From Squalus acanthias (lineage: Eukaryota), in the NCBI GenBank assembly GCA_030390025.1, contig CM059432.1:33110001-33174000 (forward strand): a stretch of DNA of 64,000 nucleotides. Reading direction: 5' to 3'. The notes below the pieces were generated by a model. That model was not told the DNA's origin and ran no database searches. It saw only the letters and a program-made list of their open reading frames with translations. This document shows, in pieces, positions 1 to 64,000 of this stretch; positions within the stretch are counted from its first letter, which is position 1, and each line of letters begins with the position of its first letter. The position numbers were made by a program, and so were the translations under genes.

Positions 1-397
1 GCTTCTTCCTCCCTGAAGAAGGGAAGAGCACCTCCTTATGAGCTCTTGCTCCATCTACCAGGGCTTGCAGGGCGACGTCCTCAAATCTTGGAGCAGACTT
101 AGGTTTGCTGGTGCACATGATGCCTCCAGGTCAATGTAGGAACAAAGGCCAGAAGGTTGGCAGTCTGCAAAGGAAGCAAGTCCTCTTGCAGACCTTAAAA
201 GCAGCAGCAATGATGATGTCATCGGAGGCGACTTTCAGACTGGAAAAGCTAATTGGGCCAGGGGTTCTCCACACAGGAACTCAATTGCCCAATCTCGGGA
301 AAATCGCGTTTGTAACACACATCGCATGAGAGTCGGGTGGATAACACGGAAATCGGATGACACAACGCCAGTCCGCCCCCATGGGAAAATCGAGCCC
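1..397. mobile_element. Right end of a PIF/Harbinger element (family A) including start of Myb/SANT-like exon 1; runs off window start
   Basis: 1-397 is homologous to 6182-6575; ends in gaaaatcgagccc, the reverse complement of the GGGCTCGATTTT TIR seen at 2333, followed by ttt. Confidence 0.85.
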
Positions 398-2332
398 TTT
401 GTGTTTAATGTACAAGGACCCCCAGATCCCTCTGTACTACAGCATTTTGTAGTCTCCATTTAAATAATTTTTTTTATTTTTCTTACCAAAGTGGATAACC
501 TCACATTTTCCCACATTATACTCCATCTGCCAAATTTTTGACCTCTCTCTTAACCTATCTATATCCCTTTGCAGATTCTTTGTGTCCTCTTCATAACTTG
601 CTTCACCACCTATCTTTTGTATCATCAAATTTGGCTACATTATACTCGGTCCCTTCATCCAAGTCATTAATATAGATTGTAAACAGCTAGAGGCCCCAGC
701 ACTGATCCCTGTGGCACCCCACTAATTATACTTTGCCAACCTGAAAATGACCCATTTATCCTGACTCTCTTTCCTGTTAGTTAGCCAATCCTCTATCCTT
801 GCTAATATATATTACCCCCAACCCCATGAGATCTTATCTTGTGCAGTAACCTTTTATGTGGCACCTTATCGAATGCCTTCTGGAAATCCAAATACATGAC
901 ATCTACTGGTTCCCCTTTATCCACCCTGCTTGTTACATCCTCAAAGAACTCCAGCAAATTTGTCAAACATTATTTCCCTTTCATAAAACCATGCTGACTC
1001 TGCTTGACTATATTCTGATTTTCTAAATGTCCTGCTATCACTTCCTTAATGATGATGGACTCCAGCATTTTCCCAATGACAGATGTTAGGCTAGGTCGAT
1101 GGTTACCTGCTTTCTGTGTCCCTCCTTTCTTAAATAGGGGTGTTACATTTGCGGTTTTCTAGTCCGCTGGGACCTCTCCAGAATCCAGGGATTTTGGTAG
1201 ATTACAACCAATGCATCCACTATCTCTGCAGCCACCTCTTTTAAGACTCTAGGATGCATGTCATTGGGCCCAGGGGACTTGTCCACCTTTAGTCCTATTA
1301 GTTTGCCTAGTACTTTCTCTCTAGTGATAGTGATTGTTTTAAGTTCCCATCCCGCCCCCCCCCCCCCCAAGCCCAATAGCCCCTTGATTATCTATTATTG
1401 GGATGCTTTTAGTGTCTACTACCGTGAAGACCGATACAAAATATTTGTTCAAGGTCTCTGCCATTTCCCTGTTTCCCATTATTAATTCCCCAGACTCATC
1501 CTCTAGGGGACCAATGTTTTCTTTCGCTACTCTCTTCCTTTTTATATACCTGTAGAAGCTCTTACTGTCTGTTTTTATATTTCTTGCTAGCTTACTCTCA
1601 TAAGCTATCTTCTCTCTTTTTTTTAGTCGTCCTTTGCTGGTTTTTAAAAAGTTACCAATCCTCTGGCCTTTCACTCTTCGTCGCAACATTGTATGCTTTT
1701 GTTTTCAATTTGATACCACCCTTTACTTCCTTAGTTAGCCACGGATGGTTCATCCTTCTCTTAGTCTTTCTTTCTCTCTGGAATATATCTTTGCTGAGTG
1801 TTATGAAATATCTCCTTAAATGTTTGCCACTGCTTTTCTACAGTCTTACCCTGTAATATATTTTCCCAGTCCACTTTAACCAAGTCTGCCTTCATACCTT
1901 TGTAATTACCTTTGTTTAAGTTCAGGACACTAGTTTGAGACCTAGCTTTCTCACCCTCAAACTGAATTTGAAATTCTGCCATGCTATGATCACTCTTCCC
2001 AAGAGGATCCTTCACTTTGAGATCATTAATTAATCCAGCCTCGTTACACATTACCAGATCTAAAATAGTCTTCTCCCTGGTTGGTTCCACAACATATTGT
2101 TCCAAGAAACCATCCCATATACACTCTAAGAACTCTTCCTCAAGTCTGCCAATTTGCTTTGTCCAATCAATATGAAGATTAAAATCTCCCATGATTATAG
2201 CCGTACCTTTCTTACAAGCCTCTTATTTATCGTCCTTCAGTGTGGCTACTGCTTTGGGGGTCTGTAGACCACTCCCACCAGTGACTTTTTTTTACCCTTA
2301 TTATTTCTTCTCTCCACTCAAACTGATTCTAT
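398..2332 (-). mobile_element. CR1 LINE ORF2 fragment (APE endonuclease to RT), degenerate
   Basis: Minus-strand pieces MGDFNLHIDW...PTREKTILDLV...SDH (endonuclease), KSPGPNDMHPRVLKE, WQMEYNVGKCEVIHFG (RT C-terminus); resumes at 6576 after the Harbinger insertion. Confidence 0.9.
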
Positions 2333-2851
2333 GGGCTCGATTTTGCTAAGCCCGAGGAGGCGGGAATGGAGGCGTGTGGGGAGTTAAAATAGCAAAAAAT
2401 GGCGGGCGACCACGGTCCCGCCTCCGAGCAATTTTCCAAAATTGGGGGTTTCCGATCCCGACTCCATCCCGCCTCCAAGAGGCGGGATAGGCCTTTAAGG
2501 CCCTTAACAGCCACTTAGGAGCCTCTAAAATGCCATTTTGACAGCCCTTTGTGAGTTTAACCCTGTTTCCACATGAAGCACGCGTCCTCTGAACCACGAC
2601 GGTGAAACCTGGCGGTTTCTCATTTGGATAGCTGACTTTCAGCTGTAGCTCCACCATTAAAAGGGAGTTTTGAGCAATCATCATTTGCAGGTGGCAGAAC
2701 TTTGTTGTCTCAAGTCTGGGGGAACTTTTATCAGCCATAAGCATTGGTGTGGAAGTTTGGAGCCTGACACCCATCTCCAGTGTGACCTCCTGGGAAACCC
2801 CTCTCGCCACCTTCACTGAGCACTTCCTCAATTGAGGCATATACCAGAAGC

Positions 2852-4069
2852 ATGGGTACCATTACTTTCCTTTCCTCCTAGACATCAGATGAGGACGAGG
2901 AGCAGCCGCGGCAGCAGCCGAACCCTGAACAGCAACAGCAGCAGCTCCAAGCTGCTGCTCACCCACCTGAAGCTGCACAGGCCAGAGGGCGCCAGTGCTT
3001 GGAAGCACGACGGCGCAGGAGATACCCCCCAAACAGGGTGTACAGACAGAGGATCAGCTACCTCAGCATGACTGAACAGCAGTGCCAAAGGCGGCTCCGA
3101 CTTTCGCAGGAAGCAGTGGGTGACATATGCGCAATGGTCCAGGAAGACCTGCAGCCCAGAGGAGCAGGTGGACACCCCTTACCAGTGGCCGTCAAGGTCA
3201 CCACCACACTCAACTTATTTGCCACAGGCTCAGTCCAGGGATCAGCTGCAGACATCAGCGGCATTTCGCAGGCGGGCGCACACACCTGCATCATGCAGGT
3301 AACCGATGCCATCTTTGCCCTCACTCACAATCACATCCATTTCTCCAAGGATCGACCAAGTGTCAGGGCGCGTGCAGTTGGATTTGCTCATCTGGCAGAC
3401 TTTCCAAGGGTGCAGGGCGTCGTTGACTGCACACATGTGGCCCTTAAGGCACCCCATCGCAATCCAGGTATTTTTGTCAACCGCAAGTGCTTCCACTCCC
3501 TCAACGTTCAGCTGGTGTGTGACCACAAGAAGGAAATTTTGCATGTTTGTGCCAAGTACCCTGGCAGTTGCCATGACTCCTTCATCCTGCACCAGTCTAG
3601 TGTGCCTCCGCTCTTCAGTCCGCCAGACCAACTTTTCGGATGGCTACTTGGAGACAAGGGCTATCCCCTGAAGACGTGGCTAATGACTCCGTTGAGGAGC
3701 CCATCCAATGAGGCTGAGGAGCGCTACAACTCCAGCCACATTTCCACCAGATCCATAATCGAGCAAACCATCGGTTTGCTGAAGATGCGCTTCAGATGCC
3801 TGGATAGATCAGGTGGAGCCCTGCAGTACTCAGCAGCCAGGGTCTCCAGAATCGTCGTGGCTTGCTGTGCACTTCACAACATGGCACAGCATCGTGACCT
3901 GCAGATGCCTGAGGACCAAGTGGCTCCTCACATATCCTCCTCAGATGACGAGGAGGAGGAGGGCGACAACGGTCATCCTGCAGAGGCGCATCAACCAGTG
4001 GCAGGAGTACGCGAGCACATTGCTGCCCGGGATGCAAGGAATGCACTCATCCTGGCCAGATTTGCTTAG
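2852..4069 (+). pseudogene. Harbinger DDE transposase (HARBI1-like) with one early nonsense codon
   Basis: Catalytic motifs [24 protein letters not shown] plus CCALHN; ATG at 2852 is in frame but codon 10 is TAG (2879-2881) where sister copies have TGG; open from 2882 to 4069. Confidence 0.9.
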
Positions 4070-4339
4070 CCTAGCCAATCAAGCATTTCGGACTCGCAGC
4101 TTCTTACCAGAGCTTCGACAATGGCCAAGAACCAATGGATTCCTAGCACTCTGAGCACTATACTGACAAGTGCAAGTCATCCTAAGCCCTCAATGTGGAA
4201 GTCCCATCAGCGATATGACAAACGCTACAAGGGCACCAGTTGCCATCTGATTTTTTTATTTACATGAAACGACAGATGGCTTGTCCACAATAAACATAAC
4301 ATTTTACCCAAGTGACTACCCTTGTGACTATTTCTGCAG

Positions 4340-6296
4340 TATCTTTCTCTTACGCGTGCTCCGACGTGATGGTTCCCCTGTGGCTTCAGCAGATGTGGAG
4401 GCCCCTTGCTCACTTTCTTGCTGCTCCTGTCTCGACTCCTTTGGCGGGTGTCCTCTGGGGTTGCGAACCTGTGAGGGCTCGGCAACAGTCTGCTGCTGAG
4501 CAGGGGATGAGATGCCGATCTCAGTTGGTGTGGACTCTGATGGGGCTCTGACCGAGGACTTTGCAGTGGCATGGTCATGTGGGCGCTTGGAGAGGAGCCC
4601 CCACTTCCTTGTTCTCTGCCACCAACATCCCTCTCATGGGTCAGCCCCACTTCAGAGCTAGCAAGTGGCTTGACAGCACCTTGCTGCACTTCAGGGGGGC
4701 CATTAGGACCCGTTTCTGTACTGGAAGTCCTACTGGCGAGGACTTGCCTGAAGGTCTGGTTTGATTGCTCAGTAGCTGACCATCGCTCCTCGAGATGTCA
4801 TTCTATTCTGAGCAAATACCATGGTTTCCATACCCTGGCGACTAAGCTCCTCCATGGACGTAGCCAACCTCTCCTCTACCGTTGCCATCCTCTCCTCAAC
4901 GGTAGTCAGCCTTACCATGGAGGTAGACATCCTTTCCATGTAGGTTGCCATCCTTTCCGTGGTGATGCGCTCATGCGCCAAAGTCTCCACAAAGGCTCTG
5001 CTCATGCTAGCAAGGGACTCCTCCATTCACGCCACACTTGCAGCGACCCTGGAGACAAAACCTGCCAGAGACTCCTGCACCTCTTCCTGGAGTTCCAGCA
5101 CCGCTCTTCTGGATGGACCCAGAGGCAGAGGGTCGACATGCAGCTGAGCCGAGCTGGGAGAGTCCTGCGCCCTCCGACTAGCACTCTCCACTGCTGTCCC
5201 TGTCTCCACTATCTGCTGATGCTCACTTGTGAGCTGTGATACACCAGGTGACAACACTACTCTATGTCTCGAGGGTCCCACCGAGGTGTGAGTGTCTGCG
5301 CTGTTGCTGGGTGGGCTGAATTCTGCTGACGCTGCGCCCTCCTCTGAGGAGTCTGGAGGTTCCGGATGTTCCTCCTCGAGTGGGGACGAGGTGCTTGCGA
5401 TGGTCCTGTGGGGGAGTAAAGGAAAGAGTCAGAGATGTGAGGCCAAGGTTACATGCACATTGAATATTGCAGATGATCATAAGTCCATCTGTTAGAGCAT
5501 CAGATTCATTATCAGCGACTCATGCAATGTCAATGAGAGAGATGAAAAACTCTTCTGTCACCAGCTTGCTCTGATGCACCCGTCTGTCCGTCCCCCACTT
5601 GTGCATCATCCTCGACCCCGACTATCTGCAGGGCCGCCTCCTCCCAAGTCGTGAGCTGAGCTATGGAGGGTGGCCCTCCTCCTGTCCTCGCTCCTTTCCT
5701 TTTATTGTGGGCTCTCTTTTCCTGCAATGAGGGAGACGAGTGGAGTTTGAGTGAGAATGAAGGAGTGAGTGTAGAGAATCCATAGCATAGATGCTTAGAA
5801 GGAGACAAAGATGGAGTGAGGTGGCAAGACCAAGGGCCCTCCCTGTGCGTTGTAAGTTGTTGTCATAGCAACACAGTGATAGAAAGTGAGAGGGCTGCAT
5901 AGTCGAATAGTTAGGTGAATGTGAACATACAGAGAGAGGGAATGGGTAAGGGGGCAGGGATGTCTGTCAAGTGGGATGTGGAGGAAGAGGTTGTCAAAGC
6001 TGAGTGCTGGAGAGGAGAGGCAATGGGGATGAATTTGAGGGTGATGGGAAAGTCATACTCACTTTTCCAGTGCGTATAAGGTCATGGAACCTCTTCCTAC
6101 ACTGAAGCCAGGGTATCTGCGCCAAGGAGGACACCTCCTGGGCCACTTGAAGCCACACAGCCTTTGTCTGTTGGGGAGGCGGCTTCTTCCCCGAGGAAGG
6201 GAAGAGCACCTCTTTGTTAGCTCCTGCTCCCTCTATCAAAGCTTGCAGGGCGACGTCCTCGAATCTCGGGGCAGACTTAGGTCTGCTGAAACTCAT
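4340..6296 (-). pseudogene. Harbinger ORF2, Myb/SANT-like DNA-binding protein, 3 exons (6296-6063, 5721-5562, 5405-~4340), frameshifted in exon 3
   Basis: PRFEDVALQALIE...W..VA.EV...WLQCRKRFHDL Myb/SANT-like pattern; donor gtgagt, acceptor ttgcag, exon 2 EKRAHNKR...TGGGPP, donor gtgaca, acceptor cacag; coiled-coil-like exon 3. Confidence 0.8.
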
Positions 6297-6939
6297 TTTG
6301 CTACTACTTTCGTGTGGTTGCTAATACAGAAAGCTTGGCAGTCTGCAGAAGAAGCAAGGTTTCTTGCAGACCTTAAATGCAGCAGCAATGATGATGTCAT
6401 CGGACCTGACTTTCAGACTGGAAAAACTAATTGGGCCAGGGTTCCCACACGCAGGAAATCAATTGCCCAATTAGGGGAAAATTCATTCTTATCCCCACAT
6501 CCAATTGGAGTCGGGTGGAGACCACGATTTCCACCTGACACGACCCCAACCCGACCCATTGACAAAATCCAGCCCTATGTCTTGATCTTCTAGGTCATTA
6601 TAGGCTATTATACCCTGGGTAGGAGAGAAGCTGGTCACTACTGCAAAACCCAAAGGATTCTCAGTCTGGTTGCCAACCATTGAGAAGGTTATCTTTGCTC
6701 TGGCAAGGAGGGCATTGATGCCTTGCTTGCTGCAGTGGTGTACTAGTGTCCCTCATAGTAGCCTGAGGTGAAAAAAGCTAAAGGTGGTGTAAGTGGTGAC
6801 TTGGACGATTACTGGCAAAGCATAGTTTCCATTTTTCATCATTTAAATAAATGTTCCTGAGCTGTATAGGGACCTGCAGCGAAGGCCCAGAAGTCATGTA
6901 CATCGATTTAGGGTGGAAAATTGGCTTCTGTCCCACATT

Positions 6940-8484
6940 TTTCAACGACCTCACTCGGGTTGTCAGGGTGAGTGGCTTTTTTTCAATAGCTCTCCATCCC
7001 TCCATCTCAACCTCACTCTATGGCCAGAGGGTCTTAAAACCCCAATGCACAACACTCATCCAACACCTATGGCCCCCTCATAAAACACACATGCACATTC
7101 CACACCTTGCATACAGTGAGGGCTATTCAACTATGGGAGGCACACCAGGCAAGACCATGGCTGTATATTTACTCAGACGCCGTCCTTTTTCTTGCAGGCC
7201 AAGCTATCTCATAACAGGAGACAGCAGCAACGGACGGGTGGAGGGCGGCCTCAGCTGCAACCCCTCAGCGATCTTGAGGCGCACAGCCACAGGATTGTGG
7301 CAAGCCGGGTGATCGGTCCCGTCTCCCTTGGAGAGGTCGACCCCGTTCGGGACAGCAATGGTAAGGTCATCAGCTTTCTCTCTTCTCTCATTCCACTTGT
7401 CCCTCAACACCAGCCTTTGACACTTTCAATCCAATTTACTAAATCGCTCCACTCCTTCCTCCCTTCCTGCCCCCCTGTCCTCACACTAAAGCCACTCTTG
7501 TACCTCCCTGCTTTCAGATGGTGATTCACCAGCTGAGGAGATGGGCCCTCAAGCTGCCAATGGGAGCGAGGCAGCAGGCGAAGAGGAAGTCGGAGCCTCA
7601 GCGCCACCCTCTCCCGAGGAAGCCCATGCCCACACTGGGGCCACGTCTTCCCTGGAGGGGAGCGGGGGGGAAGGGTCTGATGAGGGTAAAGCTCCGGGTT
7701 CCAGCGGGCTGCAGCAACGCGATGGGGGTAGGGAAGCTCAGGGGCCTTCTGCCCGGAGGGAGAGTAGGCCAGCGAGTCCTGCTGCACTGGATGCAGAGGA
7801 GGAGTGGCTCATCGCTGAAATGAACACCCAGGCGGTGGACATGCACACTCAGCTCATGGGTGCAGTGGGAAGGGTGCCCGAAAGCATTGATGCACTGGCA
7901 AGGAGTGTGGAGCACTACGCTGTTGCACAGGTGGATGCCACGCAAATGCTTAGTGCTACAATTCAGTCACTGGCTGCCGTGATCACATCTCCGACTGCTC
8001 TCATGCAGTCTCAGATTGAGGCCACACAAGCACTGACTGCTGCCATTGTCGCTGGTTCGGACACATTTCCCCGGGGCTCTCACTGCGCCGCAGCAGGCCA
8101 GCAATCTGTGCTCCAGCAGATTGCTCCGGATGCTGAGGTGCTGCCCTGTGGGAGTGCCAGTGTCGGTCGAGCAGGGAGGTGCTGTCCTCTCAAGATGACA
8201 GCATTCCTGCTGCCACCCCTATCACTTCCCCACTTCACTTGCCACCGCCTGTAGTCCAGACTGCTGCTGCGCATGCAGAGTTGGTGCAGTCTGCAGCCGG
8301 GTCCTCCAGGCCTAGAGCTGGTCGAGGTCATCCTTCAAGAGCATCTGCAGTCTCAGGTTCAGACAATCAGCAGCCTTCCGCCAGCCTTGCTGCAGCCACT
8401 GGGGCCCCATTACGGAGGAGCAGTAGGGTGGGAAGGGGGGAAGTGCGCAAGGGAAGGAGATCACCCTCGAAGGGAAAAAAGTAG
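6940..8484 (+). pseudogene. Harbinger B Myb/SANT-like gene remnant (end of exon 1, exons 2-3)
   Basis: FNDLTRVVR|gtgagt, AKLSHNRRQQQRTGGGRPQL, ends RKGRRSPSKGKK* as in the copy at 27188-29293; frameshift near 8170. Confidence 0.8.
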
Positions 8485-8607
8485 GAGGTCTGACTAAATG
8501 TTGGGAATGTTTTTATTAAAGGCTGAGGTTCGTGTAATAACTTTTGTTTAGTGTTTTGGTCATTATCTCCAGGTTGAGAGAACCAGTTATGTTAATTAAT
8601 GACGTTT

Positions 8608-8844
8608 TGTTGAGGCTGCCGCGAAACACGAATTAAAGCTGAATCCATGTGTGGAAAAAGAGAGACTTTAATGCAACTGCATGGTCCAAAAATGGCTGAA
8701 CACTGCTCCCAGAATTCTCTGGAAAAACCTGAGGCCCCGCCCACTCCTGCCTTAAAGGTAAGGTGCCTTAAAGGGAAGGTGCATCGAATTATTGTCCACG
8801 GACGGAAAAGTGGATAATGCCCATTTAGGTGGCGATCCGCCACA
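8608..8844 (-). repeat. 3' LTR of Gypsy element 1
   Basis: Direct repeat of 12702-12923 with 3 substitutions, a 1-bp indel and a 16-bp duplication. Confidence 0.95.
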
Positions 8845-8864
8845 CAGCTCCCCCCAGAATCTGC

Positions 8865-11800
8865 TTAGGAGGTGTGGACGAGACGGTGCGGCGGTCTGAT
8901 GGGCCGGCCGGAGCGGCTCTTGTCGGACGCCGGTGGACGTGGAACGGCCGGGCGTGGAGCAGCCGGGTGAACTGGCTTGAGGGCAGGTCGGCCGTGTGGA
9001 GGTGGACGAGCTACAGGGACCTGCTCACCGGGCTCCGAGTGTGCTGGTTTGAGTCGGTCATCCGACACTTTTTCGGTCCTGTCGCCCACTTGCAGGGTGA
9101 AAAATTTGTCCCCAGCCTGTAGCACCTTGTAGGGCCCGTCGTACGGGGGTTGAAGGGGTCCGCGGTGGGCGTCGTGCCGGACGAAAACGAACCGTGCCTG
9201 GTGCAGGCTTAGTGGGACATGTGAGGTGGATTCGCCGTGTCGGGCAATGGGCACCGGGGCAAACTACAGCACCGGTGAGGCGAAGTCGTGGCGTTGCTGG
9301 TCGACTGACCAGGGTGTCGTGGCGGTGGGCAGGAACTCGCCGGGTACGCGCAGCGGCTGACCGTACACGAGCTCTGCTGCCGATGCGTGGAGGTCTTCTT
9401 TAACCGCGGTGCGCAGGCCGAGGAGGACCCACGGAAGTCGGTCGGTCCAGGCGCCGCCTTGGAGGCTGGCTCGAAGAGATGCCTTCAAGGATCTGTGGAA
9501 CCACTCACAGTCTGCTGGCTTGGGGGTGGTACGCTGTGGTGCGGTGAATGGTCACCCCGCGATTGCGTGCGACGGCGGTCCAGAGTTCAGAGGTAAATTG
9601 CGGACCTCTGTCCGACGTCATGTCGGAGGAGACGCCGAACCGTGCGACCCAGGTGCTGACTAAGGCTCTGGCGATGTCGGCGGTGGTAGTAGAGGTCAGT
9701 GGAATTGCCTCAGGCCAGCGTGTGGTGCGGTCAACGATGGTCAGCAAGTGCGTGTGGCCTTGCGACGGCGGCAGGGGACCGACGATGTCCACGTGGATGT
9801 GGTCGAATCTCCGCGAGGGGATGGTAAACTCCTCGAGGGGTGCTTTCGTGTGTTGCTGTACCTTGGCCCGTTGGCAGGCTAGGCAGGAGTTGGCCCAAGT
9901 ACGCACATCCTTGCGAAGGCCGCGCCAGACGAAGCGGTTGGCTACCAATTTGATGGATGCGCGGGCGCCGGGGTGGGAGAGGTTGTGGAGAATGTTGAAT
10001 ACCCGGCGGCGCTGGGACGATGGGCCGAGGTTGACATAGGGATATGTCTGTCACACTTGACCGTGACTGCAGTCGGGCCACAGGCGACGTCTGCCAGGCG
10101 TAGCCCTGGTACGTTGGTGGGTGCGGAGAGCAGATCAGGGTCGGTGATCTGGTCTGCTGCGAGTTGAGCGTAGTCGACTGCTAGGTGTGCGGCGTGGATG
10201 GCGGGGCGGGAGAGGCAGTCGGCTACCACATTGTCTCGGCCGGAGACGTGTTGGATGTCTGTGGTGAACTCTGACACTGCCGCGAGCTGGCGCTGCTGCC
10301 TGGCGGACCAGGGGTCGGTTGTCTTTGCCATTGCGAATGTCAGGGGCTTGTGGTCGACAAACGCCGTGAAGGGGTGGCCCTCAAGCAAAAACCGGAAATG
10401 GCGGACCGCCAGGAACAGCGCGAGGAGCTCGCGGTCGAAGGTGCTGTACTTGACCTCCGGGGGGCGTAGTTGGCGGCTGAAGAAGGCAAGTGGTTGCCAG
10501 GCGCCGTCGACCCACTGCTCATACACGGCGCCGACCGCGTGGTCGGAGGCGTCCGTGGTGAGCGCTACCCTGGCATTGGGCCGTGGGTGCGCGAGCAGGG
10601 TGGCGTTGGCGAGCGCGGTCTTGGTGGAGTCGAAGGCGGCGGACGCGTCTGCCGTCCATTCGACCGCCATCTTGCCGCTCCTGCCCCGGAGGGCTTCATA
10701 CAGGGGCCTCATGAGGGACGCCGCTTTGGGGATGAAGCGGTTATAGAAATTCACCATCCCGAGGAACTCCTGGAGGCCTTTGGTGGTGGGGCGGGGAAAT
10801 TGTTGGACGGCCTGCACCTTGGTGGGCAGGGGAATGGCCCCAGCATGGGTGATGTGGTGGCCGAGGAAGTCGATCTTGTCCAGGCCGAACTGGCATTTGG
10901 CTGGGCTGAGGAGCCCGTGGTCGCTGAGGCGCCCGAACAGGATGCGAAGGTGTTCGAGGTGTTCCTGCAAGAGGAACTGGCTACCAGGATGTCGTCCAGG
11001 TAGATGAACAGGAACTTCAGGTCCCGAAGGACCGAGTCCATGAGCCGTTGGAATACCTGGGCCGCGTTTTTGAGGCCGAAGGGCATCCGCAGGAACTCGA
11101 ACAGGCCGAAGGGGGTGATTACGGCCGTCTTGGGGACGTCCGCGGGGTGGACGGGGACTTGGTGGTAGCCGCGCACCAGGTCGACCTTGGAAAAGACTGA
11201 GCGGCCGGCCAGTCTAGCCGAGAAGTCCTGAATGTGCGGCACGGGGTACCGATCAGGGGTGGTGGCGTCGTTGAGGCGGCGGTAATCCCCGCAGGGGCGC
11301 CAACCCCCACCTGGTTTGGTGCGATGTGGAGTGGGGAGGCCCAGGGACTGTTGGAGCGGCGGATGATGCCGAGCTGTTCCATGGTGGCAAACTCGGTCCG
11401 CGCGATCTCCAGTTTGGTCGGGTCCAGCCTGCGGGCGTGGGCGTACACTGGGGGGCCTGTGGTGGGGATGAAGTGTTCCACTCCATGTTTGGCGGCCTCC
11501 GCGGAGAAGGTCGGATTGGTAAGGGCCGGGAATTCGGCCAGGAGTGCTGAGTAGTCATCCGTGGCCCGGGCGTGGCACTGTGACGCCATGTCGGCGGGTT
11601 GACGGGGGGCCATGGCGCCCAGGATGGGGGACATGGTGTTCATGTCCACGAGGCGGTGACGAGGGATGTCTACCAGTAGGCCGTGGGCGCACAGGAAATC
11701 TGCGCCGATGAGAGGGGAGAGCACCTTGGCAGTGATGAACTCCCATCGGTAGCGGTGACCAGCGAGGCCGCGGGTGACTGTCCGGGTGCCATAGGTCCGG

Positions 11801-12661
11801 ATTTCTGAGCCATTAGCAGCAGCCAGCGCCGGTCCTTGTTCGCCCTTTTGGATGTCGAAGGAGGAGGCCGGGATGATGCTGTGCTGAGCCCCAGTGTCGC
11901 ACAGGAGCCGGTGGCCGGTTTTGTCATCCGTGACGAACAGCAGGGAGCCCGCGTGGCCCACGGCCATCGCGGGGGCTGGTACGAGGGCGGACTTGAAAGA
12001 GCAGGGAGGTGTGCACCGTTGTGCCCTGGCGCCGAACCGTGCATGGTAGTAACACTGGCCCGCGTGAGTGGGGCGTGAAGGCCCCGTGGGCCTGGTGGCA
12101 GGCCCTTGTGGTCGCATGCTGGCTGGTGAGGGACGCGCCCAGGCATTGGCTGCCAGGTCCGGAGTGACGTCACGGCTGGAGTGAGCGGACAGCAGCTTGT
12201 TGGCCTCATCGGCCAGGGCTTCCAGGTTCGTGAGGCCGGACGCCACGATCGCTGGGCGGATGCTGAGAGGGAGCTGGCGGATGAACAGCGTGCGGAAGAG
12301 GGATCCGGGTGGGCTCTCGTCGGTGAGGGAGAGCATGTGGGAGAGGAGGTCTGACTGAGGCATCACCGAGGCCTGGAAGGTCGAGGAGGTGGCAGTTTCG
12401 CTGATATGCCGAGGCCGTAAACTTTTTAAGGAGCGCTGTCTTGAGTTGTGCGTACTTGCCTTCCTCTGGTGGGTTCTGCAGCGTTGTCCAAACCTTTGAA
12501 ACTGTGGCGCTACCGAGTGATGTGACGAGATAGTCGTACTTCGTCCCATCTGTGGTAATGCGTTGCAGCCGGAAGCGCGATTCAGCTTGGAGAAACCAGG
12601 CTTCGGGCTGGTTTTCCCAAAACTCCGGCAGTTTCACAGAAACTACGTTCGTGTCAGCCAT
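8865..12661 (-). pseudogene. gag-pol polyprotein of Gypsy element 1 (several frameshifts)
   Basis: gag KLPEFW..QPEAWFLQAE; CYYHARFGARAQRCTPPC; protease LCDTGA; RT MPFGLKNA...YLDDIL; RNase H TTDASD...DRELLA...VADCLSR; integrase HVDIVGP...TSDRGPQF; GPY/F motif YDGPYKV. Confidence 0.93.
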
Positions 12662-12686
12662 TGCAGTGCTCGGAATACGTTCTGAG

Positions 12687-12700
12687 CGTCGGAGTCACCA
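12687..12700 (-). promoter_or_regulatory. Primer-binding site complementary to tRNA-Trp
   Basis: Minus strand TGGTGACTCCGACG, 1 nt after the 5' LTR; 1 mismatch to the canonical tRNA-Trp PBS TGGTGACCCCGACG. Confidence 0.85.
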
Positions 12701-12701
12701 A

Positions 12702-12923
12702 TGTTGAGGCTGCCGCGAAACACGAATTAAAGCTGAATCCATGTGTGGAAAACGAGAGACTTTAATGCAACTGCATGGTCCAAAAATGGCTGAACACTGC
12801 TCCCAGAATTCTCTGGAAAAATCCTGAGGCCCCGCCCACTCCTGCCTTAAAGGGAAGGTGCATCGAATTATTGTCCACGGACGGAAAAGTGGATAATGCC
12901 CGTTTAGGTGGCAATCCGCCACA
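12702..12923 (-). repeat. 5' LTR of Gypsy element 1
   Basis: Direct repeat of 8608-8844; adjacent to PBS. Confidence 0.95.
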
Positions 12924-13065
12924 GTTTTATGTTTGTTTCTATTAGTTTGTCATGAAGCAATGTACATGTTTGGCCTTTGGAATCATTGCTGCCTTGGCCG
13001 GCTATAGGGGTTGCGGGTTGCTTTCCATCATGTTCTCCATGCCAGAAGCCATTTCCTGAGTAGGG

Positions 13066-14185: not shown

Positions 14186-14277
14186 TCGAAGTAATGAAGG
14201 TCAAATCCAAAAGAACCTGCAAAGTGATGCTCAGTAGCCAAAACTACTTCACACAGCGTTGACTCTGTGCAGAAGTG

Positions 14278-14316
<39 letters not shown>

Positions 14317-50482: not shown

Positions 50483-50560
50483 GATGGGTGATTCCCTGGA
50501 TCCTTAGTTCCAAGTTCGTCCAAAAAGTTTGAGTGCGAAGTTTTCCAAAGTTGATTAAAT

Positions 50561-50754
50561 TGTCGTAAGAATGAGCCTTACGCGTGGTGAACTTAAAGTA
50601 AGCTTTAATCAACTAAAAAGGTGCTACATACAAAAGAGGTCTTACTCTATGCCTCTCCAGGATCCAACTGATCAGTCCAATATTTATCCTGGACTAATCA
50701 CAGGAAGTGATGCAATAAAGTTCGAGTCACAGAAAGCTGTATTGTGTTACCACA
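50561..50754 (-). repeat. 5' LTR of Gypsy element 2
   Basis: Direct repeat of 46334-46527, 78 nt upstream of the gag ATG. Confidence 0.97.
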
Positions 50755-50954
50755 ATGATAATCAATTATATTCCTTTAAGTAAGTATGTATGTATGTATG
50801 CATGACTTTCTGAAAATGTTACAGTTAGAAACATAGAAACTAGGAGCAGGAGTAGGCCATTCGGCCCGTCGAGCCTGCTCCACCATTCAATACGATCATG
50901 GCTGATCATCCAAATCCAGTACCCTGTCCCTGCTTTCTCACACAGAATCCCCAT

Positions 50955-51271
50955 CGAGCCTGCACCGACACATATCCCACCCTATCCCCGCAACCCCACA
51001 TATTTAATTCCCCCTAACATATCCCATCCTATCCCCGTAACCCCACATATTTAATCCCCCCCTAACACTAAGGGTCAATTTATCATAGCCAAATCAACCT
51101 AACCCGCACATTTTTGGACTGTGGGAGGAAACCGGAGCACCCGGAGGAAACCCACGCAGACACGGGGAGAATGTGCAAACTCCACACAGACAGTCACCCG
51201 AGGCCAGATTCGAACCCGGGTCTCTGGCGCTGTGAGGCACCAGTGCTAACCACTATGCCACCGTGTTGCCC
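50955..51271 (-). mobile_element. HE1/V-SINE-type tRNA-derived SINE
   Basis: Minus-strand A box TGGCATAGTGG, B box GGTTCGAATC, V-domain gtgtggagtttgcacattctccccgtgtctgcgtgggtttcctccgggtgctccggtttcctcccacagtccaaa. Confidence 0.88.
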
Positions 51272-54209: not shown

Positions 54210-55271
54210 CTTTAAGATCCAGCGAAATCAGGCACTTCCAAACACCAATATAAGAAACTGGTCATTATTCGGGTGCAAAACCCACATTTTAATTAAATCT
54301 ATTATACATTCTAGGTACGCTAATTTCTATGGTTATGCGAATGAAATTGTGATGCGAATAATACTGTGTTTAGATTGTATTCGAGCTTGAGATAAAAGTG
54401 TCTTCAGACTAGTATTAGAGTAGCTGGATAGATGCTTAAAATTTGCCTGTTTTTAGTTCCCTGCAGATCTTTTAACGTTCTGCACCGTGGCAGTCATATA
54501 TATGACCTTGCTTCCCAAGCTAGCTGTCTGCTGTTTGTGTGCTAGGAAAGCTGCTGACTGTATCTTTAATTTAGCCAACCAAGGCCCAACGCCTATGTTT
54601 CTTCCATTACTGCTAATAACCATATAATAATGCTAAGTTAGGATTTTGACTTTGTTTAACAAAACTGCTTTAAAATGCTTAAGTTAACCAGTGTGTGAGA
54701 ATAGAATGGAGGATATTTTGGGGAATTTAATGATTCATTCCATGGTACAATAGTATGATAATGGAATGAAATAGTTTGCACAGCTAAACTGCATGAACAG
54801 CTTTGAACATAAATAACTGACACCAAGCAGCTACAAACAATCTGAAGGCCGAGAATGGTATGTCTGACTCCAAACTTAGGAGGACAAGGCCGGATGAGAT
54901 GAGGGGAAAACAGTCCTCCGTATCTTCTACTCCGGTCCACCACTAAAAAGAGTATAAAAGAAAGACCTGAAAAGCCTCCCGCGCAAACGGTGGACTGAAG
55001 AGCTCCTGAGAATGGATCTATGCTGACTTTGGTCCAACACTCTTGGGCAGTTCAAAAAGAGACATGCGAGACGAGAAGGAGAGCTGTTAGTGCACGCCAG
55101 CCGTCTGTCCGAACGGGGCCGGTACTCGCTACTTGTCACAGTCGTATGTTTTTGCCGTATAACTAATGTGCGTTATTCCACCTTAAACTCCAATTAAACA
55201 CAGTATACCCACCGTATTGGTTGCAGTCGATCCTGATCATTTGAAAGACCAGAGATAATCTAATCTCAACA
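54210..55271 (+). mobile_element. Probable solo LTR, same family as 36690-37657
   Basis: Inverted homolog; TATAAAA near 54953; ends ctcaaca; left boundary approximate. Confidence 0.65.
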
Positions 55272-55442
55272 ATCGGTGCTGCACTTCTTGTAGGCAGCTG
55301 CCAGGGCTTCCTAAACACAGCTCAGGAATGGCCTGGGCTTATGCACATGTCTGAAGTGGGCTATTTAAACTACTAACTTTGTTATCGTTCCATGCATTTT
55401 ACAACCGAGAAAGGGGCTCAATGATGTGTAATTTAAACCCCA

Positions 55443-55800
55443 CTGTTTCTGCAGCCTTTAGCATGCAGTTACGAACAATGGCGGACAGGTAAAGACCATC
55501 TGGTCCATCGAGCCTGTCCCACACAATTGCGATACCTTGTGTATCACAATATATACACTCCACCCCACCCGAAACCGTGATCTCCTGGGAGAGGCAAAAA
55601 AAAATGTTCTTCAAAGATTCTCCCTCAGAGAATGGTTTTGATGACTCAGCTATTTCATGGGCAATCACACCGCTCGCCTTAACAGCGGCATCACTTGCAC
55701 GGTGAGCGTCAGTAAACATTGCTGCTTTTTCAACGACTCTATCTTCCTGTAACTTGCCTGCGTACTTAGCATTATTTCTCACCATGGTTAGCTTCATACA
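55443..55800 (-). pseudogene. hAT (GTF2IRD2-like) transposase N-terminal remnant with a small LINE-tail insertion
   Basis: DAAVKASGVIAHEIAESSKPFSEGESLKN...CMLKAAETV. Confidence 0.75.
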
Positions 55801-56837
55801 GGAGAATTTTAACAGGCAAGGGCGTGTGGATCGGGGTTTGGGAGGGTGGATAAATTTGCCGAAAATGGAAGTGCGACCGCAACCCGGCTCCAACGTAGTG
55901 TCATCTGTGCTAAACTCGGGTGTGTTAGGCTGCGTGTGCCAAACCCCTTCCAGAGTGACGGATTACTGATACTTAAATCAGGCTATTTCAGTGATATTTT
56001 CACCGGGATTTAAATTTAACACCACATACACGGGTTTCCCAGGCTTCCTAGAAGGTAAGAAGATTGTGTGGCAATTTATGGGTCTAATTAAAAGGCATGA
56101 ATATGGATATCAGTGAAGGCTCAGTGCTCACATCTGCTTTCTTAGCTCCCACTGGGAAAGGATTTGGTGAGACTGCGTGTTGTTGTGAGGCGCTAATTTG
56201 TTGACACTCAGCACATCAGGATGGGTGGGGCCATAGAGAGACCTGCTGGTCTCAGAGGGGAGCAACAGAAGGGTCGAGGTCACAGGAGTCACTACCCACG
56301 TACCAGGGTGTACAGACAGAGATAAAAACAGAAAATGCTGGAAATACTCAGCAGGTCAGGCAGCATCTGTAAAGAGAAACAGAGTTAACGTAGCAGGTCA
56401 GGCAGCATCTGTAAAGAGAAAGAGAGTTGCCGGGCCCGATTTTAATGGACTTCAAAGGGCAGGTTTGGAGGCGGGTCGGCAGCCAAAATTGAAAAAATTG
56501 CCGGTAGGCTGCGAACCCACGCCCACGCTAATTACGTAAGTGTCGGGTCAGCCGCTCCTAAACTGACCCGACACCAAACGGCGGGACAGGCCGTTAACTG
56601 CCTTGCTAATCCTATTTTAATATTTGATTCCAATTTTGGTGCTTTTGGCTCCTGTTTCCCGTCTTCCGAGAAACACGCCAGCTGCAATGAGTCGGGTTTC
56701 TCGAGGACATGATTTGTTGTCAATTGCTGCAGCCGCTTATAAACGCTCCTGCAACATCGCTGACATTCAAATGTCACAACTATGTTGTTGGAGATTTGGG
56801 ATAAGATTTTGCTACTCTACTGACCTTGTGACTATGA

Positions 56838-57920
56838 TGTGGAGATGCCAGTGTTGGACTGGGGTGGACAAATGTGAGCAGTCGCACAACACCAGGTTAT
56901 AGTCCAACAGCTTTATTTGAAATCACAAGCTTTCGGAGCGCTGCTCCTTCATCAGGTGAAGTGAAGAGATGATGCATATAGGCACAGCATATATAGTCAG
57001 AGAACACTGCCAGATGATTATAGTTAATCTTTCCAACTGCCCTTTATCACACCTCGGCAGAGAGATAATCACGGCAATCAAAGGTGTGGATGGGGTCCAA
57101 ACAGGTCAGTCAGGAAAACATTACATCAAAGACAATGTGGCAGATGCTGGGGTCTGTATGGAAAACAAAAAACTTTTTTTTGCTGGAAGTCACAGCAGGT
57201 CCGGCCGCATCTGTGTAGAGAGGACAAGCCAACGACGACTCGAGTCTGGATGACTCTACGTCAGGTGGGGTTACATGTAGCGTGACATGAACCCAAGATC
57301 CCGGTTGAGGCCGTCCTCATGGGTGCGGAACTTGGCTATCAGTTTTTGCTCGACGATTTTGCGTTGTCGTGTGTCTCGAAGGCCGCCTTGGAGAACGCTT
57401 ACCCGAAGATCGGAGGCTGAATGTCCTTGACTGCTGAAGTGTTCCCCGACTGGGAGGGAACACTCCTGCCTGGCGATTGTTGTGCGGTGTCCGTTCATAC
57501 GTTGTCGCAGTGTCTGCATGGTCTCGCCGATGTACCATGCTCCGGGGCATCCTTTCCTGCAACGTATGAGGTAGACAACGTTGGCCGAGTCACATGAGTA
57601 TGTACCATGTACCTGGTGGGTGGTGTCCTCGTGTGATGATGGTATCTGTGTTGATGATCTGGCATGTCTTGCAGAGGTTGTCGTGGCAGGATTGTGTGGT
57701 GCCGTGGTCCCTGTTCTCCTGAAAGCTGGGCAAGTTGCTGCGAACGATGGTCTGTTTGAGGTTAGGCGGCTGTTTGAAGACGAATAGTGGAGGCGTGGGG
57801 ATGGCCTGAGCGAGGTGTTCGTCGTCATCGATGACATGTTGAAGGCTGCGAAGAACATGGTGCAGTTTCTCCGCTCCGGGGAAGTACTGGACGACGTAGG
57901 GTACTCTGTTGGTTGTGACT
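56838..57920 (-). mobile_element. Penelope-like element 3' portion with GIY-YIG endonuclease
   Basis: CDSANVVYLIRCRKGC...YIGET..TLRQRMNGH...EHF...EQKLIAKF...GLN. Confidence 0.92.
56923..56959 (-). ncRNA. Minimal type I hammerhead ribozyme
   Basis: Identical to 18900-18936. Confidence 0.82.
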
Positions 57921-58075
57921 CTTCAAGCTGACCGCCATCTGCAGTGTGAGCTGATTGGAATAATCTCAGGCCACTTTGTGCGCTTGCAAGCTTCTTGCCT
58001 CAACTGAAATCTATAGCAACAGTATGGGAACCATTTATATCCTCTCATCCTGGTCGTCAGATTTGGAGGAAGAGG

Positions 58076-61040
58076 AAACATAGAAACATAGAAGATAGGA
58101 GCAGGAGTAGGCCATTCGGCCCTCTAGCCCGCTCCGCCATTCAATGCGATCATGGCTGATCATCCAAATTCAGAACCCTGTCCCTGCTTTCTCCCCATAT
58201 CCCTTGATCCCTATAGCCTTAAGAAATATATCCAACTCCTTCTTGAATATATTTAATGAATTGGCCTCTACTGCCTTCTGTGGTAGAGAATTCCACAGGT
58301 TCACCACTCTCTGGGTGAAGAAATTCCTCCTCATTTCTGTCCTAAATGGCTTACCCCTTAGACTGTGACCCCTGGTTCTGGACTCCCCGACCGTCGGGAA
58401 CATCCTTCCTGCATCTAGTCTGTCCAGTCCTTTCAGAATTTTATAAGTTTCAATGAGATCCCCTCTCATTCTTCTAAACTCTAGCGAGTATAAGCCCAAT
58501 CGACCCAATCTCGCCTCATACGTCATTCCTGCCATCCCAGGTATCAGCCTGGTGAATCTTCGCTGCACTCCTTCCATGGCAAGAACATCCTTCCTCAGAT
58601 AAGGCGACCAAAACTGCAGATGTGGTCTCACCAAGGCCCTGTACAACTGCAGCAAGACATCCTTGTTCCTGTACTCAAACCCTCTCGCTACGAAGGCCAA
58701 CATACCATTTGCCTTCTTAACCGCCTGCTGCACCTGCATGCTTACCTTCAGCGACTGGTGCACAAGGACACCCAGGTCTCGTTGCACTTCCCCTTCTCCC
58801 AATCTATTGCCATTCAGATAATAATCTGCCTTCCTGTTTTTGACACCAAAGTGGATAACCTCGCATTTATCCACATTATATTGCATCTGTCACGCTTCTG
58901 CCCAATCACCCAACCTGTCCAAATCATTCTGGAGTTTCTCGGCATCCTCCTCACAGCACACGCCCACCCAGCTTTGTGTCGTCTGCAAACTTGGCGATAT
59001 TACATCTAGTTCCCTTGTCTAGATCATTAATATATATTGTGAATAGCTGGGGTCCAAGAACCAATCCCTGCGGTACCCCACTAGTCACTGCCTGCCACTC
59101 GGAAAAAGACCCATTCATTCCAACTCTTTGCTTTCTGTCTGCCAACCAGTTCTCTATCCAAGTCAATACCTTGCCCCCAATCCCATGTGCCTTAACTTTA
59201 TATGCTAATCTCTTATGCGGGACCTTATCGAAAGCCTTTTGAAAGTCCAAATACACCACATCCACTGCTTCTCCCTTATTTATTTTCCCAGTTACATCTT
59301 CAAAAAATTCCAGCAGATTAGTCAAGCACGATTTACCTTTTGTAAAACATGTTGACTTTGTCCGATCCTGTCACTGTTTTCCAAGTGCTCTGCTATTACA
59401 TCTTTTATAATGGACTCTAGCATTTTCCCCACTACCGATGTCAGGCTTACCAGTCTGTAATTCCCCGTTTTCTCTCTACCACCTTTTTTGAATAGTGGGG
59501 TAACATTAGCTACCCTCCAATCCATGGGTATTGTTCCAGATTCCATTGAATGTTGGAAGATGATCAGCAATGCATCTACTATTTCTAGGGCCACTTCCTT
59601 AAGTACCCTAGGATGTAGATTATCAGGCCCTGGGGATTTATCGGCCTTCAATTTCCCTAACACCATTTCCCTACAAATACTGATTTCTTTCAGTTCCTCC
59701 CTTTCATCAGACCCTATGTTCTTCAACATCTCTGGGAGGTTATTTGTGTCCTCCTTTGTGAAGACAGAACCAAAATATGTATTTAATTGGTCTGACATTT
59801 CTTTGTTCCCCATTGTAAGTTCCCCTGATTCTGACTGCAAGGGACCTATGCTTGATTTCACTAATCTTTTTCTCTTCACATATCTATAAAAGCTTTTACA
59901 GTCAGTTTTATGTTCCCTGCAAGCTTACTCTCGTATTCTATTTTCCCCTTCTTAATTAATCCCTTTGTCCTCCTTTGTTGAATCTTAAACTGCTCCCAAT
60001 CCTCAGGGTTACTGCTTTTTCTGGCCAATTTATATGCCCTCTCCTTGGATCTTATGCTATCCCTAATTTCCCTTGTTAGCCAGGGTTGAGTCACCCTTTT
60101 TGTTTTATTCTTATGCCAAACTGGGATGAACAAATTCTGTAGTTCGTCCATGCGGTCTTTGAATGTTTGCCATTGCCTATCCACCGTCAACCCTTTGAGT
60201 GACAGTCCCCAATCAATCCTACCCAACTCGCACCTCATACCATCGTAGTTTCCTTTATTTAAATTCAGGACCCTAGTCTCTGAGTCAACTACTTCAGTCT
60301 CCATCCTAATGAAGAATTCGATCATATTATCGCTCCGACCCAAGGGGCCTCGCACAACAAGATTGCTAATTAATCCTTTCTCATTGCATAATACCCAGTC
60401 TAAGGTGGCTTGATCTCTGGTTGGTTCCTCGACATATTGGTCCAGGAAACCATCCCGTAAACATTCCAGGAATTCCTCCTCCATAGTATTGTTACTAATT
60501 TGGTTAGCCCAATCTATATGTAGATTAAAGTCACCCATGATGACTGCTGTGCCCTTATTGCACGCTTCTCTAATTTCCCTTTTAATGCCATCCCCAACCT
60601 CCGCATTACTGTTTGGAGGTCTATATATCACTCCCACTAACGTTTCCTGCCCCTTGTTATTTCTCAGTTCAACCCATACAGATTCCACATCATCAGAGCT
60701 AATATCCTTCCTTTCAATTGTGTTAATCCCCTCTTTAACCAGCAATGCTACCCCACCTCCCTTTCCTTTTTGCCTATCTTTCCTGAATATTGAGTACCCC
60801 TGGATGTTGAGTTCCCAGCCTTGGCCACCCTGGAGCCATGTTTCGGTAATCCCAATCAAATCATATTCGTTTACCTCTATTTGCGCAGCTAATTCATCCA
60901 CCTTGTTCCGAATGCTCCTTGCATTAAGACACAAAGCCTTCAGACTTGTTTGTTTAACGCTCTTAGACCTATTAGAATTAGTATTCATTGAAAACCATAC
61001 CCACGTTCTCTGCCTCCACACACGTTACCTTTTTGGTCTC
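58076..61040 (-). mobile_element. CR1 LINE with nearly complete ORF2 (few frameshifts) and 3' tail
   Basis: [57 protein letters not shown]; tail ctatgtttct repeats. Confidence 0.93.
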
Positions 61041-61209
61041 TAATAGACCCTACTCTTTCCTTGGTTATTCTCTAGCTCTTTATGTATTTATAAAACATTT
61101 TTGGGTTTTCCTTAATTAAACTTGCCAACATTTTTTCATGCCCTCTCTTTGCTTACCTAATTTCCTTTTTAATTTCATCCTTGCACTTCCTATACTCCTC
61201 TAGGCTTTT

Positions 61210-63288
61210 TAAAATTCATTCCTAGGATGTGAGCATCGCTGGCAAGGCCAACATTTATTGCCCATCCCTAATTGCCCTTGAGAAGGTGGTGGTGAACCAT
61301 CTTCTTGAACTGCTGCAGTCCTTGTGGTGAAGGTACTCCAATGGAGCTGTTAGGCAGGAAGTTCCAGGATTTTGACCCAGCGACTATAAAGGAACGGCGA
61401 TATACTTCCATGTCAGGGTGGTGTGTAACCTGGAGGGGAACTTGCAGGTGATGGTGTTCCCATGCTGGTCTTGTCCTTCTAGGTGGTAGAGGTCACGGGT
61501 TTGGAGTTGCTGATGAAGAAGCCTTGGTGAGTTGCTGCAGTGCATCTTGCAGATGGTGTAGACTGCAGCCACGGTACGCCAGTGGTGCAGGGAGTGAATG
61601 TTTAAGGTGGTCGATGGGGTGCCAATCAAGCGGGGGCTGCTTTGTCCTGGATGGTGATGAGCTTCTTGTGTTGTTGGAGCTGCACTCATCCCGGCAAGTG
61701 GATCACACTTTTGACTTGTGCCTTGTAGATGGTGGAAAGGCTTTGGGGAGTCAGGAGGTGAGACACTCGCTGCAGATAACCCAGCCTCTGACCTGCCCTT
61801 CGGGTCGCAGTATTTGTGGTTGGTCCAGTTAAGTTTCTGGTCAATGGTGACCCACAGGATGTGGATATTGGGGGATTTGGCGATGGTAATGTCGTTGAAT
61901 GTCAACGGGAGGTGGTTAGACTCTCGCTTGTTATAGATAGTTATTGCCTAGCACTTGTGTGGCGTGAATGTTACTTGCCACTTATCAGCCCAAGTTTGAA
62001 TGTTGTCCAGGTCGTCTTGTATGCGGGCATGGACTGTTTCATTATCTGAGGAGTTGCGAATGGAACTGAACACTCTGCAATCATCAGTGAACATCCCCAC
62101 TTCTGACCTTATGATGGAGGGAAGGTCATTGATGAAACAGCTGAAGATGGTTGGACCTAGGACACTGCCCTGAGGAACTCCTGCAGCGATGTCCTGGGGC
62201 TGAGATGATTGACCTCCAACCACCTCAACCATCTTCCTTTGTGCAAGGTATGACTTCAGCCAGTGGAAAGTTTCCCACTGACTTCAATTTTACTAGGGCT
62301 CCTTGATGCCAAACTCAGTCAAATGCTGCCTTGATGTCAAGGGCAGTCACTCTCACTTCACCTCTGGAATTCAGCTCTTTTGTCCATGTTTGGACCAATG
62401 TTGTAATGAGGTTTGGAGCCGAGTAGTCCTGACGGAATCCAAACTGGGCATCAGTGAGTAGGTTATTGGTGAGTAAGTGCCACTTGGAAGGTGTCATCGA
62501 CAATGCTATCATCACTTTGCTGATGATTGAGAGTAGACTGATGGGGTGGTAATTGGCTGGATTGGATTTGTCCTGCTTTTTGTGGACAGGACATACCTGA
62601 GCAATTTTCCACATTGTCAGGTAGATGCCAGTGTTGTAGCAGCTGTACTGGAACAGCTTGGCTAGAGGCGCGGCTATTTCTGGTGCGCAAGTCTTCAGCA
62701 CGACAGCCGGGATGTTGTCAGGGCCCACAGCCTTTGCAGTATCCAGTGCACTCAGCTGTTTCTTGATATCACGTGGAGTGAATCGAATTGGCTTGAAAAC
62801 TGGCTTCTGTGATGGTGGGGACCTCAGGAGGAGGCCGATATGGATTATCCATTCTACTTCTGGCTGAAGATAGTTGCAAATGCTTCAGCGTTGTCTTTTG
62901 CACTCGCGTGCTGGGCTCCACCATCATTGAGGATGGGGATATTCATGGAGCCTCTTCCTCCCATTAGTTGTTTAATGGTCCACCACCATTCACAACTGGA
63001 TGTGGCATAAATGTAGAGCTTTGATCTGATCCATTGGTTGTGGGATCGCTTAGCTCTGTCTATAGCATGCTGCTTCCGCATGTAGTCCTGTGTTGCAGCT
63101 TCCCCAGGTTGGCACCTCATTTTTAGGTATGCCTGGTGCTGCTCCTGGCATGCTCTTCTACACTTCTCATTGAACCAGTGTTGGTCCCCTGGCTTGGTGG
63201 TAATGGTAGAGTGAGGGATATGCCAGGCCATGAGGTTACAGATTATGGTGGTATACAATTCTGCTGCTGATGGCCCACAGCACCCAGT
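61210..63288 (-). mobile_element. CR1/L2-clade LINE, second family, RT and 3' end
   Basis: [55 protein letters not shown]. Confidence 0.9.
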
Positions 63289-64000
63289 TATAACCTTTCT
63301 ATAGTATTGAGCTCCCGGCATCTGACAAGTGTCCCTTTTTTTTCCCCCTTATCCTACCCTGTATGCTCCTTGACTTCCAGTGGGCTCTAATGAGAGTCCC
63401 ACCCTTTTTCTTTGTGGGAACATATTTGCTCTGGACCCTCCCTATGTCCTCCTTGAATGCCTCCCACTGCTCTGACACTGATTTACCTTCAAGTAGATGT
63501 TTCCAGTCCACTTTTGCTAAATCACATCTCAACTTAGTACCTTCCTCAATCAAGAACTTTTACATCTGGTCTATCTTTGTCCTTTTCCACAACTATGCTA
63601 AATCTAACTGAACTGTGATCACTACCACCAAAATACTCTCCCACTGATGCCCTTTCCACCTGCCCAGCTTCATTCCCTGGAACTAAGTCCAGAACCTCCC
63701 CCTCTCTTGTTGGGATTGTTATGTACTGGCTAAAAAAGTTCTCCTGAATACATTTTAAGAATTCTGCGCCCTCTTCTTCTTGCACTAATTCTAGTCGTTG
63801 AAATTCCCTTCTATTACTGCCCTATTGTTTTTGCACTTCAGAAATTTGCACACATTTACTGTTTGGGGGTCTATAGTACACTCCCAGCAGTGTGATTGCC
63901 CCTTTTTTGTTCTTCAGTTCAATCCATATGGCCTCATTTAATGATCCTTCTAACATATTATCCCTCCTCACAGCTGTAATTGTTTCCTTAACCAATATCA
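63289..64000 (-). mobile_element. CR1 LINE endonuclease-region fragment, continues past window
   Basis: FLKCIQENFFSQY..PTREGEVLDLV...GSDHSSVRF; host CR1 resumes at about 61040-61205. Confidence 0.85.

Follow-up and report, generated by a model that had tools for sequence, protein, structure and literature searches.

The closest described systems in which transposable elements accumulate in one orientation are PIWI-interacting RNA (piRNA) clusters and introns. In Drosophila, flamenco and the flam-like clusters are transposon-dense loci of >100 kb with nested insertions in one orientation and young long terminal repeat (LTR) elements, located off contig ends; they are LTR/Gypsy-selective and specific to the somatic ovary, the trap model of flamenco holds that antisense insertions are retained, and the same DNA layout criteria predicted true uni-strand clusters (PMC10643416). 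Mammalian pre-pachytene piC-DoGs are long vertebrate uni-strand loci packed with antisense pieces of long interspersed elements (LINEs) and endogenous retroviruses (ERVs), and productive mammalian piRNA clusters are also antisense-rich (PMC11615739). In human genes, intronic retroelements show an antisense bias of ~2:1 at most (PMC3517506). In this study, we analyzed a window of 64,000 nucleotides in the shark Squalus acanthias (CM059432.1:33,110,001-33,174,000, within a 3.7-Gb genome) and found that it belongs to a strand-polarized domain of ~190 kb, nearly all transposon, which is a real, rare and sharply bounded feature of this genome. Coordinates are given in window numbering, with negative values lying upstream, and tallies are given as plus:minus.

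The DNA examined covered -400 to +264 kb around the window and 20 control blocks of 50 kb (1 Mb of background), of which 16 and the block C2b lay at round-number positions, and three on C15 had been picked as a possible second trap. Probes were oriented via their protein frames, and one library and one procedure were applied to all DNA; the loci counted are merged matches, so that split elements may count twice and neighboring ones once. All control blocks, including the tandem-rich ones, were retained in the strand tallies.

From -124 to +67.8 kb, 55 of the 59 loci lay on the minus strand (4:55; 955 vs 72,313 bp; binomial 1.7e-12), a probability low enough to withstand the selection of the window out of the whole genome. 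Such one-strand orientation, well over 100 kb in extent, was sustained across 192 kb with no comparable block among the 20 controls. A change-point search over 387 loci placed the polarized segment at -127,163..+67,328, with 56/60 loci on minus and a log-likelihood ratio of 19.9, against a maximum of 11.6 among 60 permutations. Two of the four plus loci represent a single insertion of a short interspersed element (SINE) plus tail, and one plus locus adjoining a minus LINE is probably a 5' inversion.

Within the window, protein probes alone detected 14 retroelement loci, all on minus, whereas in 16 control blocks they gave 89:81; once DNA probes for tails and SINEs were included as well, the tally was 1:21 in the window (234 vs 31,170 bp) and 171:189 in the same 16 blocks. 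The four further blocks gave 13:13, 8:15, 6:6 and 7:19. No control block of the 20 reached a majority of at least 0.85, the highest being 0.82 (n=11, in a block of mostly simple repeats) and the next 0.76. A library-free self-BLAST of the window agreed, with the same strand in 51/54 pairs. The sequence-only reading of the window had claimed roughly 25 or more minus insertions, and this bias was borne out by the tally as well as by a count by eye of ~25 minus insertions vs 3 plus; the three claimed plus exceptions are all present (a SINE at 18.6 kb, plus two solo LTRs that are absent from the library and were placed by eye at 32.0-32.8 and 54.3-55.1 kb), both hAT remnants lie on minus as stated, and the bias holds for old (67-77% alike) and young (91-99%) copies. 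Where that reading assigned the bias to the window, however, it is not limited to it and spans ~-127 to +67 kb. It had also left out ~17 kb of PIF/Harbinger DNA transposons, with transposase genes on both strands.

These Harbingers provided a further observation. A count by transposase strand gave an apparently unbiased 9:9, a tally in which two families with opposite layouts mask the pattern: 7/7 domain copies of family B and 9/10 of family A share one orientation within their family. When both query copies were excluded, 14/15 agreed (p ~5e-4, hand arithmetic). Harbingers of the control blocks showed mixed orientations, though in one block four short B copies all pointed in the same direction, and three further B copies lying close to the domain but outside it were reversed. 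Density was 4.15 loci per 50 kb in the domain vs 28 loci in 800 kb of controls, an enrichment that is inflated since the Harbinger probes, like the Gypsy probes, derive mainly from the domain. The copies are mostly independent insertions: left flanks differed in all 9 checked, and target duplications were found. In the 26.8-kb B copy, 601 bp of transposase were 100% identical to 40/40 scored dispersed copies (931 candidates; C1, C2), and family B has undergone a very recent burst, the copy at 26829-31262 keeping a frame open for 410 aa. For the 2.3-kb A copy, the best 39 other matches were 95-97% alike and all outside the domain. Local amplification was ruled out by the differing left flanks and by closest relatives dispersed genome-wide. 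Almost uniform family-wise orientation despite independent insertion is a new observation.

Limited rearrangement did take place, as indicated by an ERV-like right flank common to one Harbinger B pair and by unmatched ends in one B copy. Two ERV-like copies, 85-92% alike and located at -86.6 to -67 kb and at -23.3 to -10 kb, are both joined to a Harbinger B, in each case at one and the same internal position, and their B partners are 96-97% alike; this shared junction reflects either repeated targeting or gene conversion.

The repeat make-up of the domain also differs from its surroundings. Repeats cover 0.88 of the domain vs 0.47-0.74 of the flanks, by a measure that favors the domain, and ancient L2 and Deu SINE loci numbered 2 against 25 expected. 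Nested insertions and young elements are both present in this transposon-dense DNA; young-repeat cover (outside partners only) was 0.41 vs 0.10-0.47 in 13 controls, high although not unique, with the tandem-rich controls C3, C11 and C16 omitted. Gypsy/ERV-type loci numbered 9, all minus, vs 3 in 1 Mb of controls, with probes taken from the domain; after split pieces were joined, they represent ~7 elements, and LINE loci outnumber LTR elements. The classes with a single direction (LINEs, Penelope, Gypsy/ERV, Tx1, hAT and Tigger-like) are mainly minus. Two apparently unique stretches of the window proved to be largely old repeats.

Compared with the flamenco and flam-like clusters, the shark domain shares length, transposon density, nesting, single orientation, young LTR elements and a position off contig ends. 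Like piC-DoGs, it is a long vertebrate locus dense in antisense pieces of LINEs and ERVs; unlike them, it lies 5' of two divergent genes, and the nearest upstream gene found is a minus-strand kinase. As a source of read-through of the piC-DoG kind, a plus-strand exon above cut-off was sought in -167..-121 kb and none was found, in a screen of low sensitivity. The domain resembles intronic bias in that its retroelements would lie antisense to a plus-strand transcription unit, as do those in the introns of ALS2CL, the next gene on the right. It departs from the ~2:1 maximum in human introns (PMC3517506) with 14:1 by count and 76:1 by bases, and intronic bias involves no change of repeat age or density.

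Based on this DNA evidence, our preferred reading, which we hold with moderate confidence, is that the domain is likely a uni-strand piRNA-cluster-like trap in which a predicted plus-strand transcript would give antisense small RNAs. The sequence-only reading had likewise proposed a long plus-strand transcript that may act as a piRNA-producing trap, and this proposal is partly supported: the composition fits a trap, and the strand ratio exceeds both genome and intron backgrounds, so that the equal ratio which that reading had named as a refutation did not turn up. A giant ALS2CL intron still competes with this interpretation. A promoter near the left edge (~-125 kb) would fire rightwards across the domain; antisense insertions would add silencing sequence and be kept, while sense insertions would be lost, so that selection may maintain the domain, and the domain would grow as new elements enter old ones, diluting ancestral DNA. 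Since Harbingers carry two convergent genes, either orientation would supply antisense, and the first captured copy would set the family orientation, with opposite copies purged as self-targets; an opposite copy would expose the precursor to its own piRNAs or fold it into double-stranded RNA. Strand-specific signals inside the Harbinger element are an alternative source of the uniform orientation; in 6/7 Harbinger copies listed, AATAAA is slightly less frequent on plus, a weak sign. The genome contains two PIWI-clade exons, which match PIWI proteins at E ~1e-23 and Argonautes at ~1e-7, and the elephant shark keeps nuclear Piwil4 (PMC7618676).

Several observations weigh against a piRNA trap. 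Two solo LTRs, one with AATAAA, and one SINE lie on plus inside the window. Unlike flamenco, the domain is dominated by LINEs and Penelope-like elements and has abundant DNA transposons that are uniform by family. Library-free self-matches on the same vs opposite strand were 17:2, 17:13, 19:4 and 17:2 in the domain tiles, and this measure is also high outside, at 13:2 in control C1a and 89:19 in the -200..-150 kb tile. A depletion of AATAAA specific to plus was not found: the domain gave 72:125 vs 330:554 for control hexamers (p 0.87; C3 omitted from the pooled count), and AATAAA is less frequent on plus just to the degree that base composition predicts. Finally, the antisense lean by bases persists rightwards (86% within +69..+109 kb, 76% within ALS2CL), and one presumed RNA contig extends 5' of the ALS2CL exon at +108.9 kb by 166 letters, which fall outside +104..+114 kb.

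These last points concern the strongest competing explanation, namely that the domain would be a giant intron in the 5' untranslated region (UTR) of ALS2CL, or an intron of a long non-coding RNA, in a transcript that starts at ~-125 kb, runs divergently from the kinase and has no piRNA role. Sense insertions would end or mis-splice such a transcript, and ordinary selection would yield the polarity; we regard this explanation as rather unlikely, yet as a serious contender. It gains from the arrangement of the genes: a PKR-like kinase is coded on minus at -167.4 to -202.3 kb and ALS2CL on plus at +110.5 to +185.6 kb, so that the domain sits 5' of two divergent genes. In the presumed RNA contigs (three runs, unstranded), ALS2CL exons are bounded by GT..AG joints, among them a spliced 5'-UTR exon at +108.9 kb, and the 166 unplaced upstream letters mean that the first exon of ALS2CL could lie left of the domain; the N-termini of ALS2CL homologues do not reach into this upstream exon. 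The lean by bases continues to +186 kb, and retroelements in introns are well known to lean antisense (PMC3517506).

The polarity, in contrast, is far above that in the introns of the same gene (p 4e-5), which lean antisense by only 22:35 (61% by count), as compared with 4:55 in the domain (Fisher 3.9e-5). By count, it stops abruptly at +67 kb, and the 40 kb separating the domain from ALS2CL gave 13:13; we place the strong polarity within ~194 kb and regard the lean beyond it as ordinary genic bias. The right edge is a single-copy AT-rich block at +67.9 to +69.3 kb with a strong plus-strand splice donor at +68.4 kb, the sole strong one there; besides bounding the domain on the right, this block is a candidate for the first ALS2CL exon. 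An ordinary intron predicts neither the loss of ancient repeats, nor an increase in complete LTR and DNA elements, nor uniform Harbingers, and a purge of poly(A) signals was not found. Inside the domain, no host-gene exon above cut-off was found among 419/445 non-repeat open reading frames and 72/85 shorter ones, by a screen that caught 2/~25 ALS2CL exons; TMIE, considered as a hidden gene within the domain, was located 1.75 Mb away.

Improbable in our judgment is an origin of the polarity in insertion or DNA stability, either through biased integration at a replication origin or open chromatin, or through the loss of inverted repeats by recombination. Such an origin would account for family-uniform Harbingers without any transcript, and the B copy with unmatched ends is a sign of recombination between direct copies. 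However, inverted-repeat loss would fix families in random directions, which differs from the mainly minus single-direction classes, and inverted copies persist at about even rates in the control blocks. Replication-linked strand biases known so far are mild. Local tandem or segmental duplication, by which same-way copies would not be independent events, is highly improbable and already refuted in large part: despite 127 long self-matches in the domain and the ERV-like right flank common to two Harbinger B copies, most long matches stop at element ends, pairwise identities range over 65-98%, both Gypsy copies have their own flanks, and the Harbinger flanks, target-site duplications and relatives elsewhere in the genome speak for separate insertions.

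If a piRNA trap is present, the wider suggestion, which is possible but on balance doubtful, would be that cartilaginous fishes keep long-lived flamenco-like traps for all element classes with a rule of one family, one orientation that includes Harbingers; an opposite copy would turn the piRNAs of the cluster against its own precursor. Such traps would then be detectable in vertebrate genomes from DNA alone and readable as a dated archive of invasions. This bears on whether non-mammalian vertebrates possess dedicated antisense transposon traps, and the shark represents a slowly evolving jawed-vertebrate lineage for the trap model. No piRNA-cluster map in cartilaginous fish was found by title or abstract start in the literature searched, in which most subscription papers lie outside coverage. 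The locus offers exact boundaries, flanking genes for synteny and the prediction of plus-strand 1U piRNAs from -125 to +67 kb, and the Harbinger pattern could separate selection for antisense piRNAs from the avoidance of self-targeting.

The features of the window are collected in Table 1. Pfam yields domains only and does not supply family names; CR1, L2, Penelope, Tx1, RTE, HE1 and Deu SINE are what we take these families to be.

Table 1. Features of the 64,000-nucleotide window, with strand (a dot where none is assigned) and basis of the assignment.
Feature	Position	Strand	Basis
Right third of the strand-polarized domain; plus-strand precursor predicted	1..64000	.	Strand tallies and change-point
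Old CR1-type LINE body	396..2347	-	Library matches
Harbinger family A, near full length; transposase plus, Myb-like gene minus	2333..6577	+	DDE_Tnp_4
Harbinger family B, Myb plus, transposase minus, interrupted by Gypsy element	6941..14683	.	Self-BLAST, protein domains
Gypsy-type LTR element, frameshifted, LTRs 91.6% alike	8608..12923	-	
Old fragmented CR1-type LINE containing a piece of a second LINE family	15050..17833	-	
Deu-domain SINE (label presumed), plus exception	18596..18830	+	
Pieces of two Penelope-like families (label presumed)	18842..23103	-	Reverse transcriptase by Pfam
LINE fragments and tails, Tx1-like pieces, CR1 3' half	23631..26828	-	
Very young Harbinger family B, TAA target duplication; Myb plus, transposase minus	26829..31262	.	
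CR1-type LINE 5' part, interrupted by solo LTR	31243..33546	-	
Solo LTR, AATAAA on plus, plus exception	32008..32790	+	By eye
Solo LTR, inverted vs the 54.3-kb copy	36782..37645	-	
Old Harbinger family A copy, oriented like other A copies	38276..40858	+	
Deu-domain SINE	40938..41280	-	
hAT transposase remnant	43120..43589	-	Weak Dimer_Tnp_hAT match below cut-off
Young Gypsy-type LTR element, 1318-aa open frame, LTRs 99% alike	46332..50754	-	
HE1-type SINE fused to CR1-like tail (label presumed)	50826..51270	-	
Solo LTR, plus exception	54290..55143	+	
hAT-like transposase remnant (label presumed)	55402..55962	-	
Penelope-like 3' parts	56331..57999	-	
Young CR1-type LINE, then LINE of a second CR1/L2-clade family	58081..64000	-	

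Concerning the flanks, the sequence-only reading had proposed inspecting them for a host gene or a single upstream promoter; the host genes described above were found, and the left edge is without a CpG island. This edge, at -125.7 to -124.7 kb, is AT-rich and single-copy except for a 200-bp repeat, and both GC-rich candidates for an island there turned out on reading to be transposon DNA. Myb-type and TATA motifs at both edges were short and no better than chance. The left-edge block carries a CTCF-like motif and is a candidate promoter or insulator. Just left of the boundary lies a Tx1/L1-like element on minus, single-copy in the sample, whose first frame contains a CR1 chimera on the plus strand. 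The idea that a plus arm mirrors the domain to the left of -125 kb was dropped when fuller libraries gave 13:6 and then 13:17.

Beyond ALS2CL, a JmjC exon lies on minus and a SNAP47-like exon on plus, the gene labels SNAP47 and JMJD4 being presumed ones. The closest listed relatives of the neighboring genes are from sharks and rays. The PKR-like kinase is inconsistently named across sources, mostly as PKR-like, and several sharks carry the kinase and ALS2CL on one contig, the two genes being located on equally long contigs in six species; in the Pfam lists of its relatives, an RNA-binding domain was not detected.

An Rfam search of the window gave 0 matches, and a search of RNA data with window 33.6-43.5 kb listed none that contain it, an outcome weighed neither for nor against transcription. 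The possible second trap at C15 50.63-50.78 Mb, chosen for four clustered LTR copies, showed no strand bias. Among the controls, C16 and C11 contain large tandem arrays, that of C16 with several open frames of 300-1200 aa and no Pfam match, and C3 includes ~35 kb of low-complexity repeat with an extreme AT skew (-0.67 across the block). The HE1-type SINE of Table 1, followed by a short tandem spacer and a CR1-like tail, is a young composite, which occurs in two copies of opposite orientations, one in the window and one at -66.7 kb.

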